From assembly GCF_000320365.1 (NCBI RefSeq), contig NZ_ANIN01000001.1, positions 1,181,540 through 1,213,539 on the forward strand: a stretch of 32,000 nt of DNA. The letters are read 5' to 3'. Both the position numbers and the translations under genes were made by a program. Of the stretch, positions 27,072 to 32,000 are shown piece after piece. Within the stretch, counting starts at the first letter, position 1. Each line of letters starts with the position of its first letter. The notes under the pieces were generated by a model. The model ran no database searches and had not been told where the DNA came from. It saw nothing but the letters and a program-made list of their open reading frames with translations. This stretch comes from Moraxella macacae 0408225. Its GTDB lineage: Bacteria; Pseudomonadota; Gammaproteobacteria; Pseudomonadales; Moraxellaceae.

Positions 27072-27473
27072 TTAAGGCTTTTTAAATGCACTTGGTAGGT
27101 ATTTACTATCAACAGTATTCGTACCACCTGTCATATTCTCCATTTTTAACGTGCCACTATCCTCATCAACTTTCAATGTTATTTCTTTATCTGCAATTAA
27201 ATCAGAAACTCCTTTTTTCTCAAATTTATACTTAATGCCACAGTTTAATTTATTAGCTTTTGTTTCCTGTAAAATTTCAGCTTTACCGTATTTGCCAGTG
27301 ATCTTGTCTTCAGTACCTGCAGTAGTGGCGGCGTTAGCATAGCATGTACCATTCTGTCTGTTTGTACCGATGCTGGTTTTAAGTCCGTCTGCTAAAGTAA
27401 ATGCTTCTGCTACCTGTGAGCGTGCAATATAATTTTGATACGCAGGCAAAGCAATCGCGGCTAGGATACTGAT
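27072..27473 (-). pseudogene. Silent type IV pilin cassette 4 (type A-like conserved region)
   Basis: The minus-strand frame from the core reads [45 protein letters not shown]...CGIKYKF...KYLPSAFKKP. It has no leader and no promoter. Confidence 0.85.
27450..27473 (-). repeat. Pilin recombination core, copy 4
   Basis: The reverse complement of ATCAGTATCCTAGCCGCGATTGCT. Its last base, 27473, is also the last base of the Rpn copy 1 stop codon. Confidence 0.9.
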
Positions 27474-28315
27474 TACAGCTTTTCAATACTGTTTTTATCA
27501 AGTCCAGTGGCTTGTATAATCATGTGTATGGGTAACCCTAGGTTTTTAAGTTTTTGGGCGGTTTGTAGGATGCCCTGATTCAACCCATCTTCCCAAGCCA
27601 CCTGCTTGGCATATTCTTGAGTTGCCATGTTGTCTCTGTAGGTCTTTAGACTTAGTTCATATCGCATCCACTCTTCTCGGTTCATGTTGGCGATTTTGGC
27701 TTGTTCAAAGGCTTGTTCAAATACTTCATTGCCGTCAAATACTTGGGGTATCATTTGTAAGTCCTTTAGGTTTTTTAGATAAAATAACCATTTATCAAGG
27801 TTTGTGGTTAACTCGTTTTCTCCTTTGTCAAACTTTGGCATCTCAAAGTAGATAAGGGTTAGTTTATCATAAAAGATTTGATTGTTTTGGTCTTTTAGTT
27901 GTACTTTATGAATGACTTGTTTGTTTGTGTCATTAAAGCAAAAGTCCAAAATACTAATACAGTATACCGCTTTTAATTGATAATGCCAGTCTTTACCTTT
28001 TTTGGCTTGTTCTGTGATGGCAAAGGTTGAGTAGTAAAGGGTTCTGTCTTTAAAGAAAGCTTGTTTGGTTCTTTGTAGTTCTACAATAAACTGCTCACCT
28101 GTAATGCTTTCACAAAAGATGTCATAAATGGCTTTGCGGTCATCAATGGTTTCTCCCAATGCTTCTGTGTTTTTAAAGGTTAAATCAGCAATTTGATGAT
28201 GATCAGGTAAAATGGAGTTTAAAAAGCTGATTAAAAAAGGTTTGGATGCAACTGTGCCAAACAGTCTTTTAAAACCAAAGTCTGTGTAGGGGTTAATAAA
28301 GGTTGGGTTTGTCAT
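27473..28315 (-). CDS. Rpn-family recombination-promoting nuclease / putative transposase (PDDEXK_2, TIGR01784-like), copy 1
   Basis: 280 aa. The N-terminal INPYTDFGFKRLFG, then AIYDIFCE...FIVELQ (a PD-(D/E)xK-like core) and YFEMPKF are hallmarks of this family as I recall it. The predicted protein is identical to copy 3. Confidence 0.85.
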   Translation of the reverse strand: MTNPTFINPYTDFGFKRLFGTVASKPFLISFLNSILPDHHQIADLTFKNTEALGETIDDRKAIYDIFCESITGEQFIVELQRTKQAFFKDRTLYYSTFAITEQAKKGKDWHYQLKAVYCISILDFCFNDTNKQVIHKVQLKDQNNQIFYDKLTLIYFEMPKFDKGENELTTNLDKWLFYLKNLKDLQMIPQVFDGNEVFEQAFEQAKIANMNREEWMRYELSLKTYRDNMATQEYAKQVAWEDGLNQGILQTAQKLKNLGLPIHMIIQATGLDKNSIEKL

Positions 28316-28401
28316 AAAAGAGTTTCTTAATGGTTTATGTTAATAAAAATTGTAGCATAGAATGATGGTGATTTATAGTGGGTTTGTTTGTTTATGGGTT
28401 A

Positions 28402-28425
28402 ATCAGTATCCTAGCCGCGATTGCT
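28402..28425 (+). repeat. Pilin recombination core, copy 5
   Basis: ATCAGTATCCTAGCCGCGATTGCT, 86 bp upstream of the Rpn copy 1 start and facing away from it. Confidence 0.9.
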
Positions 28426-28800
28426 TTGCCTGCGTATCAAGACTACATTGCCAAATCTCAAGTGGCAGAGGCGTTTACATTGGCTGATGGATTGAAAACG
28501 AGTATTGGGACGAATAGACAGAGTGGATCTTGTTTTTCTAACGGTGCTAGTAGTGCAGGTGCTGATGACAAAACCACAGGTAAGTATGGTACAGCTACAA
28601 TTCTTCAAGAAACAGGAAAAGATAATAAATTAACCTGCGGAATTCATTATAAATTCGATCAAGTTAAAGTTTCTGACTTGCTTAAGACTAAAGAAATTGT
28701 TTTAAAACTTGATGAAAGTAGCGGTACATTGAAGTTAGGAACTGTTAGTTCTAAGTCATCTAACATTGACACTAAATACCTACCAAGTGCTTTTAGATAA
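28402..28800 (+). pseudogene. Silent type IV pilin cassette 5 (type A)
   Basis: [57 protein letters not shown]...KYLPSAFR. The 8 codons upstream in the track (MGLFVYGL) are not pilin. Confidence 0.85.
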
Positions 28801-28822
28801 ATACTACTTTACTTTAAAAGTA

Positions 28823-28849
28823 AAAACCCCAATATTACGTTGGGGTTTT
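28823..28849. terminator. Bidirectional hairpin shared by cassettes 5 and 6
   Basis: AAAACCCCAA / TTGGGGTTTT with a 7-nt loop. The surrounding spacer is nearly identical to the cassette 1/2 spacer. Confidence 0.65.
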
Positions 28850-28869
28850 GTTGTATTAAGGAGTTATGA

Positions 28870-30239: not shown

Positions 30240-30262
30240 TCAGTATCCTAGCCGCGATTGCT
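30239..30262 (+). repeat. Pilin recombination core, copy 7
   Basis: ATCAGTATCCTAGCCGCGATTGCT. Its first A is the last base of the Rpn copy 2 TAA. Confidence 0.9.
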
Positions 30263-30658
30263 TTGCCTGCGTATCAAGACTACATTGCCAAATCTCAAGT
30301 GGCAGAGGCGTTTACATTGGCTGATGGATTGAAAACGAGTATTGGGACGAATAGACAGAGTGGATCTTGTTTTTCTAACGGTGCTAGTAGTGCAGGTGCT
30401 GATGACAAAACCACAGGTAAGTATGGTACAGCTACAATTCTTCAAGAAACAATAATACATTTAACAGGAGCGGATAAGAAATTAAATTGTGGTATTCATT
30501 ATAAGTTTAATAACAAAGGGGTCTCTGATTTACTGAAAGATAAAGAAATTGTATTAAAAGCTGATGAAGATAGTGGTACTTTAAAATTAGAAAATATGGG
30601 TGGTAAAACAAGCAGTGCTGATATTTCAAAATACCTACCAAGTGCGTTTAAAAAATAA
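30239..30658 (+). pseudogene. Silent type IV pilin cassette 7 (type A, mosaic)
   Basis: The frame from the core reads [15 protein letters not shown]...GKYGTATILQET, then a divergent C-terminal half ending KYLPSAFKK. The first 213 bp are identical to cassette 5. Confidence 0.85.
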
Positions 30659-30688
30659 TTAAAATTAATATTTTTAATTATACATTAT

Positions 30689-30716
30689 AAAAAGAGTAAC
30701 TTAGGTTACTCTTTTT
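30689..30716. terminator. Bidirectional hairpin shared by cassettes 7 and 8
   Basis: Perfect 12-bp stem AAAAAGAGTAAC / GTTACTCTTTTT with a 4-nt loop. The sequence differs from the other three spacer hairpins. Confidence 0.7.
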
Positions 30717-30741
30717 ATTTTTAAGAGCTATTTTGTTTAGA

Positions 30742-31158
30742 TTATTTGAATGCATTAGGCACATATTTAGTATCAATGCTAGATGCCTTGCTACTAACTT
30801 GATTGCCAGCACTTGTGGCTAATTTTAATGTTCCATCAGTCTCGTCAAGCTTTAACACAATCTCTTTTCCTGCAATTAAATCAGATACACCAGTTTTGTT
30901 AAATGTATAATGAATTCCGCAAACTAATCCTGTTGAACCTGACGGTTTCTGTTCAAGCACTACAGCTTTCCCATACTTTCCTGTTAACTCCTCTGTTCCT
31001 GATGCTGCTTTTTTTGTATCAGCAAAACAACTCCCATTCTGACGATTGGTTGCAATAGTTGTCTTTAACCCATCTGCTAAAGTAAACGCTTCAGAAACCT
31101 GCGACTTAGCAATATAATCCTGATAAGCTGGGATAGCAATCGCGGCTAGGATACTGAT
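30742..31158 (-). pseudogene. Silent type IV pilin cassette 8 (type B)
   Basis: The track lists only 30742..30960, but my hand translation shows the frame stays open back to the core. It reads [86 protein letters not shown]...KYVPNAFK. Confidence 0.8.
31135..31158 (-). repeat. Pilin recombination core, copy 8
   Basis: The reverse complement of ATCAGTATCCTAGCCGCGATTGCT, overlapping the Rpn copy 3 stop codon by one base. Confidence 0.9.
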
Positions 31159-32000
31159 TACAGCTTTTCAATACTGTTTTTATCAAGTCCAGTGGCTTGT
31201 ATAATCATGTGTATGGGTAACCCTAGGTTTTTAAGTTTTTGGGCGGTTTGTAGGATGCCCTGATTCAACCCATCTTCCCAAGCCACCTGCTTGGCATATT
31301 CTTGAGTTGCCATGTTGTCTCTGTAGGTCTTTAGACTTAGTTCATATCGCATCCACTCTTCTCGGTTCATGTTGGCGATTTTGGCTTGTTCAAAGGCTTG
31401 TTCAAATACTTCATTGCCGTCAAATACTTGGGGTATCATTTGTAAGTCCTTTAGGTTTTTTAGATAAAATAACCATTTATCAAGGTTTGTGGTTAACTCG
31501 TTTTCTCCTTTGTCAAACTTTGGCATCTCAAAGTAGATAAGGGTTAGTTTATCATAAAAGATTTGATTGTTTTGGTCTTTTAGTTGTACTTTATGAATGA
31601 CTTGTTTGTTTGTGTCATTAAAGCAAAAGTCCAAAATACTAATACAGTATACCGCTTTTAATTGATAATGCCAGTCTTTACCTTTTTTGGCTTGTTCTGT
31701 GATGGCAAAGGTTGAGTAGTAAAGGGTTCTGTCTTTAAAGAAAGCTTGTTTGGTTCTTTGTAGTTCTACAATAAACTGCTCACCTGTAATGCTTTCACAA
31801 AAGATGTCATAAATGGCTTTGCGGTCATCAATGGTTTCTCCCAATGCTTCTGTGTTTTTAAAGGTTAAATCAGCAATTTGATGATGATCAGGTAAAATGG
31901 AGTTTAAAAAGCTGATTAAAAAAGGTTTGGATGCAACTGTGCCAAACAGTCTTTTAAAACCAAAGTCTGTGTAGGGGTTAATAAAGGTTGGGTTTGTCAT
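31158..32000 (-). CDS. Rpn-family recombination-promoting nuclease / putative transposase, copy 3
   Basis: 280 aa, with a predicted protein identical to copy 1. The start codon is the last three bases of the window, so the upstream flank and the rest of the array are not visible. Confidence 0.85.
   Translation of the reverse strand: MTNPTFINPYTDFGFKRLFGTVASKPFLISFLNSILPDHHQIADLTFKNTEALGETIDDRKAIYDIFCESITGEQFIVELQRTKQAFFKDRTLYYSTFAITEQAKKGKDWHYQLKAVYCISILDFCFNDTNKQVIHKVQLKDQNNQIFYDKLTLIYFEMPKFDKGENELTTNLDKWLFYLKNLKDLQMIPQVFDGNEVFEQAFEQAKIANMNREEWMRYELSLKTYRDNMATQEYAKQVAWEDGLNQGILQTAQKLKNLGLPIHMIIQATGLDKNSIEKL

Follow-up and report, generated by a model that had tools for sequence, protein, structure and literature searches.

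The stretch of DNA examined here (the window) comprises 32,000 nt of the Moraxella macacae 0408225 genome (NZ_ANIN01000001.1, positions 1,181,540-1,213,539; assembly GCF_000320365.1) and contains a pilin gene array in which three genes of the Rpn nuclease family are embedded. Housekeeping genes and a minor-pilin/PilY1 operon are followed by piv and then by the array, the parts of which are bounded by a short recombination core. Within the window the array consists of one expressed pilin gene, seven silent cassettes and three intact Rpn genes, the second of which (292 aa) is 100% identical to MOMA_05320 of the same strain. The only complete pilin gene is that at 26510-26989. All seven silent cassettes are open from the core through the stop codon (130-139 codons) and lack promoter and leader. 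The cassettes of the array are arranged in tail-to-tail pairs with a bidirectional terminator hairpin in between. Three of the four head-to-head junctions are occupied by Rpn genes and the fourth by the promoter and leader of the expressed pilin (26133-26563). The locus is of the Piv type, as the gene of a Piv (DEDD, IS110-like) recombinase adjoins the pilin genes, inverted cores lie within the conserved N-terminal pilin coding region, and a single promoter/leader is present. The coordinates of all features are given in Table 1.

The 23-nt core ATCAGTATCCTAGCCGCGATTGC was present in eight copies with at most one mismatch, four in each orientation, against an expectation of 0 by chance. Leftward of the ATC of the core the copies diverged completely and were mutually unrelated, so the core boundary is real and sharp. 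The Rpn genes reach exactly to this boundary. As the original prediction had stated, in each of the three copies the core begins with the last A of the TAA stop codon (at 27473, 30239 and 31158). On the 5' side a flank of 86 bp runs straight into the next core, and the predicted identity of these flanks was exact, 28316-28401 being the reverse complement of 29275-29360. Copies 1 and 3, predicted to encode the same protein, were identical across all 843 nt. Copy 2 is indeed inverted relative to them and differs by four substitutions and a 36-nt insertion at about 30100-30135, which results in one H to Q change and in 12 additional residues forming three four-residue repeats (GIEQ GMEK GIKK). 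The description of each Rpn gene as lying between two outward-facing cores applied to copies 1 and 2; the 5' side of copy 3 is beyond the window.

The Rpn module had none of the properties of an insertion sequence (IS) or transposon. It contains no transposase gene, is not surrounded by target site duplications (TSDs), and has no inverted repeats apart from the pilin cores, which extend on into the cassettes. The earlier view that this was not a simple IS insertion was therefore correct, and the reported absence of terminal inverted repeats (TIRs) is valid for the Rpn gene itself, but not for the module, which is bracketed by two inverted cores. Because of this bracketing each Rpn connector is an invertible segment. 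The 86-bp flank carries an extended -10-like sequence, TGCTACAAT, and its TGnTAnAAT box is conserved in relatives. A generic sigma-70 promoter scan was not above chance level (23 promoters found, 22 expected), so it is this conserved box on which the predicted Rpn promoter is based.

Just past the core the cassettes occur in two flavours, type A (..AIALPAYQ.., TTTGCCTGCG) and type B (..AIAIPAYQ.., TATCCCAGCT). The silent cassettes on the plus strand are all of type A and those on the minus strand all of type B, except for the pair at 26564-27473, in which the flavours are swapped and which must therefore have been inverted as a unit. When this unit and the connector at 29252-30261 were re-inverted in silico, the region 26564-32000 resolved into three colinear units, which were 1838, 1837 and at least 1762 bp long and had start-to-start spacings of 1838 and 1837 bp. 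The reconstructed units aligned at 80-83% identity, compared with 56-77% for the order as found. Between units the Rpn part was 99-100% identical and the variable cassette parts 54-75%. By this reconstruction the array had as its ground state tandem repeats of cassette A, terminator, cassette B and an Rpn gene co-oriented with cassette B, from which the present order differs by two inversions between neighbouring inverted cores. The orientation of copy 2 is explained by a flip of the connector 29252-30261 through core recombination; the Rpn connectors are thus turned over passively. Pilin inversion in M. macacae is indicated both by the flavour swap and by the tandem order restored with two inversions, as read from one assembly. 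From the A/B swap it follows that the crossover lies past core position 4 (A or G) and short of the flavour polymorphism at about position 24.

Three Rpn copies (280, 288 and 316 aa) were also seen on the second chromosomal contig of M. macacae, two of them spaced as Rpn, two genes, Rpn, which is the spacing found in the window. Locus-tag arithmetic puts MOMA_05335 at or near the last gene position on contig 1. The array probably extends beyond the assembly gap, of which it may itself be the cause.

Table 1. Features of the piv-pilin-Rpn locus (window coordinates unless a locus is named)
Feature	Position	Strand	Remarks
Candidate Piv guide (bridge/seek-like) RNA element	25135..25175	-	CTCGGTCGGTATCTTGGGCAAAACCCGCAAGCTAGGTTGAG; about 41 nt, upstream of piv
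Candidate guide element in relatives	L027:9926, L031:9926, L035:9901, L037:9903, L008:9904, L014:6163		
piv, IS110/DEDD-family pilin invertase	24040..25062	-	PF01548 + PF02371; NF033542
Recombination cores	25260, 26564, 28402, 30239	+	
Recombination cores	26110, 27451, 29252, 31136	-	
Silent pilin cassette, type A (..AIALPAYQDY..)	25260..25652	+	core 25260-25282
Bidirectional terminator hairpin	25675..25701		between tail-to-tail cassettes
Equivalent terminator hairpins	~27016-27042, 28823-28849, ~30690-30716		
Silent pilin cassette, type B	25722..26132	-	core 26110-26132
Expression connector	26133..26563	+	sigma-54-type promoter, ribosome-binding site, prepilin leader/N-terminal coding part up to core
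Sigma-54-type promoter of expressed pilin	26364-26379	+	TGGCATAGCACTTGCA; sequence reading
Expressed pilin gene, 159 aa	26510..26989	+	variable part type B; core 26564-26586 (G at position 4); PF07963 + PF00114
Silent cassette, type A though minus-strand	27072..27473	-	core 27451-27473
Rpn copy 1, 280 aa	27473..28315	-	stop TAA 27473-27475
5' flank of Rpn copy 1, 86 bp	28316..28401	-	runs into core at 28402
Silent cassette, type A	28402..28800	+	
Silent cassette, type B	28870..29274	-	
5' flank of Rpn copy 2, 86 bp	29275..29360	+	
Rpn copy 2, 292 aa	29361..30239	+	opposite orientation to copies 1 and 3
Silent cassette, type A	30239..30658	+	
Silent cassette, type B	30742..31158	-	
Rpn copy 3, 280 aa	31158..32000	-	start codon = final 3 bases of window

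The assignment of the three open reading frames (ORFs) to the Rpn/YhgA family was confirmed by profile searches, which gave scores far above the cutoffs for PF12784 (PDDEXK_2; E of about 1e-67, 228 bits, cutoff 27.4) and TIGR01784 ("Rpn family"; 117.5 and 124.2 bits, cutoff 52.1). RpnA of E. coli reached 160.9 bits with TIGR01784. No match to PF04754 was obtained, PF12784 being the sole Pfam family of the M. macacae proteins, and BLASTP against RpnA gave an E value of 0.045 across 40 C-terminal residues. Judged by these comparisons, the M. macacae proteins are distant relatives of RpnA and not orthologues, and fall outside the E. coli RpnA-E subfamily (PF04754). The catalytic residues D11, D63, E82, Q84 and R94 of RpnA (Kingston 2017, PMC5350276; Zhong 2023, PMC10400941) have equivalents in D12, D65 (AIYDIF), E79-x-Q81 (VELQ) and R91. 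In an alignment with 36 relatives D65, E79, Q81 and R91 were invariant and D12 nearly so. The ratio of nonsynonymous to synonymous substitution rates (dN/dS) was 0.05-0.14 against homologues from the M. lincolnii group and the SRR32406 series, dS being saturated, which argues that the Rpn genes are maintained under purifying selection. The AlphaFold model of the protein was mediocre (pLDDT, the predicted local confidence score, 69). Its best Foldseek matches were the PD-(D/E)xK nucleases McrC, EndoMS and EcoO109I, none of them significant (E of 0.04 or higher), and a sequence search of the PDB gave no match.

At least six Rpn copies of M. macacae are at least 90% identical. They measure 280 aa (at three loci), 288, 292 or 316 aa, and are distinguished solely by how many G[IM]xx repeats the C-terminal helix carries. 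In the M. lincolnii cluster the lengths likewise range from 287 to 315 aa in steps of four. A hypervariable four-residue repeat is reported to set the specificity of the toxin RpnL and its antitoxin RpnS, RpnL being neutralised only by an RpnS of matching repeat number (Kingston 2017, PMC5350276; Zhong 2023, PMC10400941). RpnS is made from a gene within the gene, with an internal start 8-20 residues ahead of the repeats, and the paper on the repeat also reports that rpn genes have neither TIRs nor TSDs and that their arrays arise by tandem duplication. The same literature describes RpnA as an enzyme that cuts DNA and promotes RecA-independent recombination with little or no sequence specificity. 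In the M. macacae gene an in-frame ATG (M233, RDNMATQ) precedes the repeats by 18 residues; the residue is K, L or T in close relatives and is unconserved outside the closest clade. An RpnS product is thus possible, and by their repeats the genes are probably of the RpnL/RpnS toxin-antitoxin (TA) type, probably with an antiphage role. The defence database PADLOC 2.0 holds no Rpn model. Plasmid and phage collections contained only relatives of less than 50% identity, none of them from Moraxella, and gave no sign that the genes came recently from a plasmid or phage.

Linkage of Rpn with piv or pilin genes, the occurrence of which in relatives the original prediction had proposed to survey, recurs in at least three lineages, but a Piv locus without Rpn was found as well, that of M. 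equi. Within the M. lincolnii group (a name taken from the members of the protein cluster) Rpn genes occur in several settings. In L006 and L007 the Rpn proteins are 69-71% identical to those of M. macacae, and 3 nt past the stop codon follow ATTATCGGTATCCTAGC and a silent cassette. Ahead of this Rpn gene (in L007, of a full copy) stand 90 nt left over from the 3' end of another Rpn gene, joined to the half-core TGGTATCC. In L008-L012 and L035 the closest homologue of Piv (67%) has Rpn directly downstream, with no pilin gene within 10 kb. Here the Rpn gene is flanked by direct half-cores, ATCAGTACCC and ATTATCGGTATCCTA (L008:11042-12105; L035:11020-12050), and looks like an excisable unit or the scar of a rearrangement. 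Downstream of this piv-Rpn pair (L008:12232-16196) lie about nine small minus-strand ORFs of 55-130 aa, many of them hydrophobic, with short direct repeats between them and without Pfam matches. In L037 the Rpn gene is located between cassettes, with an 87-bp flank leading into an inverted core and a decayed core past the stop codon. Near-identical Rpn genes (98% at the amino acid level; dS 0.15-0.22) were found in three different arrangements of the group.

The piv-pilin loci of L037 and M. equi (L037:9878-13781; L014:6246-9449) both lie between serA-like and pgk genes. The M. equi locus has the order piv, cassette, TfpB, pilin; its two cassettes are separated by TfpB, and no Rpn gene lies within 6-10 kb. 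In L037 the place of TfpB is taken by a pilin-like/FimB-like remnant, Rpn and an additional core with cassette. TfpB was considered as a possible Rpn protein and ruled out, as it constitutes a separate Pfam family (PF27470). In a third organism (SRR32406 series, L019-L023) the order is TatD, Rpn (70%), 430 bp with a sigma-54 promoter, and the pilin leader; the piv contigs of this series end in a core right after piv. Palindromic TGACA..TGTCA motifs at 26165-26190 of the M. macacae window, upstream of the sigma-54-type promoter, resemble motifs in the Rpn-pilin intergenic region of L020. A pseudo-core in the 3' untranslated region of the native Rpn gene of L020 was rejected as the cause of a capture by the array, because the similarity was too weak and the position wrong.

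The slots of such arrays can hold other genes. A head-to-head connector of L006 (L006:3585-5174) contains a gene of 529 aa with AAA-ATPase_like and PDDEXK_9 domains that is unrelated to Rpn; the reading frame extends into the core, whose own TAG serves as the stop codon. This M. lincolnii-group connector comes close to the unrelated connector sequence that the original prediction had named as evidence against a part of Rpn in pilin variation. At L006:1724-2994 an entire further pilin gene, belonging to another class and equipped with a leader, was seen inserted between the cassettes of one tail-to-tail unit, together with a gene of 252 aa for which a precomputed PF27166 FimB annotation exists and for which our Pfam scan gave no match. 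Rpn paralogs elsewhere behave as scattered single-gene insertions between pirin and nrdB, hutH and arginase, or folK and panB genes; those in the hut and folK|panB slots are 61-64% identical. The nearest relative of the M. macacae genes is that of M. boevrei/P0011 (L001:10001-10789), which is 78-80% identical in the core region and lies between pirin and nrdB. It has no start codon for the first 45 or so residues and a premature stop near the C-terminus, and is possibly decaying.

The longest ORF of piv encodes 340 aa and the NCBI model (P0121) 322 aa, which places the start near 25008. Piv matched NF033542 at 188.9 bits, was 55% identical to the "pilin switch DNA invertase Piv" of M. equi, and was closest to the IS621/IS492 branch. 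IS621 is guided by a bridge RNA and performs insertion, excision and inversion. An element with the arms CTCGGTCGGTATCTTGGG-loop-CCCGCAAGCTAGGTTGAG was detected upstream of every piv gene (at least 50% identity) and in no other fetched locus. Its consensus is CTCGNT[CT]GGTATC[CT]TGGG...CCCG[CT]AAGCTAGGTTGAG. The left arm equals the top strand of the core (TCGGTATC), the right arm is complementary to CCTAGC, and the two flank CT. The left arm covaries with the local core, reading TCGG in M. macacae, L027 and the M. lincolnii group and TTGG in M. equi and L037. The break points of the half-cores, GGTATCC| and GGTATCCTA|, bracket the CT of GGTATC-CT-AGC. A scan of 23500-32000 with Rfam gave only sub-threshold matches on the terminator hairpins and no family for the element, and RNAalifold showed no covariation in support of a fold, the sequences being too conserved for this. 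By the match of its arms to the core the element is a candidate guide RNA of the bridge/seek type and RNA guidance of Piv is plausible, so that a second nuclease would not obviously be needed. A guide RNA for Piv was not described in the literature searched.

On this evidence we lean, with modest conviction, towards the reading that the Rpn genes are selected, self-sufficient genes of the TA/defence type which ride as cargo in the connectors of a Piv pilin shufflon that has expanded. The ancestral layout was likely that of L019-L023, with Rpn directly upstream of a pilin gene, and the gene would have been captured from there. Once promoter and leader were lost, the stop codon of Rpn would have come to lie right at the core. 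In this reading the array arose by tandem amplification of a segment of about 1.84 kb, composed of a type-A cassette, a bidirectional terminator, a type-B cassette and Rpn, after which one inversion flipped the cassette pair 26564-27473 and another the Rpn connector alone. These recombinations are attributed to Piv, probably guided by a small RNA encoded upstream of piv, with the crossover at the CT of GGTATC-CT-AGC. As cores bound the module, it would be carried intact through every inversion or unequal exchange, and because of its own predicted promoter in the 86-bp flank, Rpn expression should be independent of the state of the array. Comparison of the loci indicates that Rpn is not required for a Piv system, since M. 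equi has none, and that the slot is not specific for Rpn, as the AAA-ATPase_like/PDDEXK_9 connector demonstrates. Both alternatives offered by the original prediction are in better agreement with the data than its lead proposal: a passenger duplicated with cassette pairs fits the tandem 1838-bp units, and a hitchhiking toxin or defence gene fits the variable number of four-residue repeats and the paralogs scattered in housekeeping slots.

Several observations weigh against this cargo reading. The same Rpn clade lies against piv or pilin cores not only in M. macacae but also in the M. lincolnii group and the third organism; it does so in three different arrangements within the M. lincolnii group (L006/L007, L008/L035 and L037) and directly upstream of a pilin gene in the SRR32406 series. 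None of 77 IS110-like control loci (at most 41% identity to Piv) had an Rpn gene, and none had a pilin gene. Junctions between Rpn stop and core are of three kinds (0, +3 and +11 nt), and because they are distinct, several independent events are implied, or else selected trimming down to the least that leaves both gene and site intact. The tight and recurrent junction with the core is also the observation that bears on a homing-endonuclease-like selfish gene, which would lie in or beside its own cleavage site. In a simple neighbour-joining tree pilin-linked and unlinked Rpn genes were interleaved. Both connector genes seen so far, Rpn and that of L006, encode PD-(D/E)xK nucleases, and RpnA-type enzymes do promote recombination according to the literature. 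Finally, the near-identity of the M. macacae Rpn modules extends over about 200 nt of the adjoining constant cassette region (99-100%), with variable parts of only 54-75% identity beside it, so whole-unit duplication alone is insufficient; concerted evolution, replacement of variable parts or recent spread of the module is required in addition. Given its recurrence in at least three lineages, a functional tie of Rpn with piv and pilin genes would not be dismissible.

The near-identity of the modules beside diverged cassettes would be expected if the Rpn module were a mobilisable Piv cassette, excised as a circle and reinserted at any core in the manner of bridge-RNA recombinases acting between direct repeats, so that site-specific insertion, in addition to unit duplication, would account for the spread of the copies. 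The direct half-cores around the L008/L035 module, the remnant with half-core ahead of the full copy in L007, break points that bracket the presumed crossover dinucleotide, and the near-identical genes in three M. lincolnii-group arrangements are all consistent with this, as is the position of Piv next to IS621/IS492, IS621 being capable of insertion and excision besides inversion. Conservative excision and insertion alone would not raise the copy number, however, and the perfectly periodic 1838-bp units favour duplication in M. macacae. Neither a circle junction nor an empty site was observed, and the half-cores could be scars of ordinary rearrangements; we therefore regard such mobility as fairly unlikely. 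The lead proposal of the original prediction, that breaks made by the nuclease at the core drive pilin variation, found no direct support in view of the M. equi locus, the core-matching element of Piv itself and the unrelated connector gene. A broader form of it would make Rpn an accessory factor whose breaks or nicks in or near the cores or constant regions stimulate cassette exchange (gene conversion, template switching, mosaic pilins), render the constant regions uniform or help Piv. The recurrent linkage, with Rpn directly downstream of piv in L008/L035, the intact ORFs under purifying selection, the homogenised tracts centred on the Rpn modules, the second PD-(D/E)xK gene in another connector and the DNA cleavage and RecA-independent recombination known from RpnA speak for such a factor. 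TA/defence biology explains the purifying selection and the repeat hypervariability equally well, though, and RpnA has little or no sequence specificity. M. equi manages without Rpn, and the closest relative, in M. boevrei, sits between pirin and nrdB. For inversion in E. coli the classical systems of M. bovis and M. lacunata reportedly need no other gene than piv, which also counts against an accessory nuclease. We consider it unlikely that Rpn serves as such a factor, and equally doubtful that the clade is a working part of Moraxella pilin variation that drives exchange, homogenisation or spread of cassette units.

By analogy with the TA cassettes of chromosomal integron arrays the modules might instead stabilise the silent repertoire, in that deletion between direct cores would remove cassettes along with an Rpn gene, and loss of a copy of unique repeat number would release its toxin. 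One module is present at each non-expressing head-to-head junction of the window, at least four repeat numbers occur among six copies, and matching repeat numbers are needed for neutralisation of RpnL by RpnS according to the published work. The three identical copies of 280 aa would cross-protect one another, and the candidate RpnS start Met233 is unconserved outside the closest clade; as the idea is drawn purely from analogy, its probability is low. Still more improbable is that number and orientation of the modules are an artefact, i.e. a collapsed or mis-joined consensus of mixed inversion isomers. The locus is certainly highly repetitive, copies 1 and 3 are 100% identical, and the ATG of copy 3 coincides with the end of the window, further copies being on the second chromosomal contig, so the array may be the break point. 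But the genome was finished with PacBio reads of 6-10 kb, 6-kb mate pairs and Illumina polishing, the cassettes beside each copy are distinct and intact, and a like architecture (87-bp flank, inverted core, core past the stop) was found in independent assemblies of other organisms.

The M. macacae locus shares with the Piv system of M. bovis and M. lacunata (tfpQ/tfpI, tfpB, piv) a DEDD/IS110-type invertase, here with 55% identity to that of M. equi, recombination at a short core that lies within the conserved part of the pilin gene encoding the N-terminus, and one promoter/leader serving promoterless cassettes in tail-to-tail pairs. It differs in size, the window alone having eight cassettes in four units instead of two cassettes, in the absence of TfpB between the cassettes, and in the presence of head-to-head junctions filled with Rpn. 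The M. macacae piv gene is also divergent from the array, while piv of M. equi abuts it with its 3' end. In shufflons (Rci/pilV of IncI plasmids such as R64) short inverted repeats bound multiple invertible segments, which supply alternative pilin-type C-termini behind one fixed 5' end, and any plus-oriented site pairs with any minus-oriented one, to which the M. macacae array may be likened. The shufflon recombinase is of the tyrosine type, in contrast to the DEDD/IS110 type found here, and the M. macacae segments include complete unrelated genes (Rpn) with their own predicted promoter. The IS621/IS110 bridge-RNA (seekRNA) recombinases resemble the present system in that Piv belongs to the IS492/IS621 branch and an upstream element has two arms matching opposite core strands around CT; here, however, only one loop-like element is evident at piv, target and donor are the same sequence, and the RNA is a candidate. 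In chromosomal integron arrays TA cassettes are found among cassettes bounded by recombination sites and could protect the array from deletion, as may be imagined for Rpn, but recombinase and sites are different in M. macacae.

The Rpn proteins correspond to those published (Kingston 2017, PMC5350276; Zhong 2023, PMC10400941) in the TIGR01784 match, the D..D..ExQ..R signature, the C-terminal helical tail with four-residue repeats, and their occurrence in multiple copies that have no TIRs or TSDs and form arrays by tandem duplication. Unlike the E. coli proteins of PF04754 they belong to PF12784, and their pairwise similarity to RpnA is marginal. The embedding of Rpn genes between the recombination cores of a pilin array was undescribed in the papers found, and no link of Rpn with pilin arrays appeared in the literature searched.

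The physiological role of Rpn proteins is debated, as they have been regarded either as antiphage TA modules or as recombination-promoting nucleases. Here a clade of these genes is embedded with single-base precision between sites of programmed DNA rearrangement, and the arrangement recurs across Moraxella species. The locus is therefore a natural setting in which to ask whether Rpn has an effect on DNA exchange, whether cassette arrays are stabilised by TA modules, and whether defence genes gather beside a hypervariable phage-receptor gene. It also points to a candidate guide RNA for a natural invertase of the IS110 family and shows that a Piv system need not stay the two-cassette switch of the textbooks but can expand to a shufflon of at least eight cassettes. 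If it were true that Rpn acts on the array, this would provide a natural "recombination-promoting" role for the family, coupled to the variation of a pilus that serves as phage receptor.

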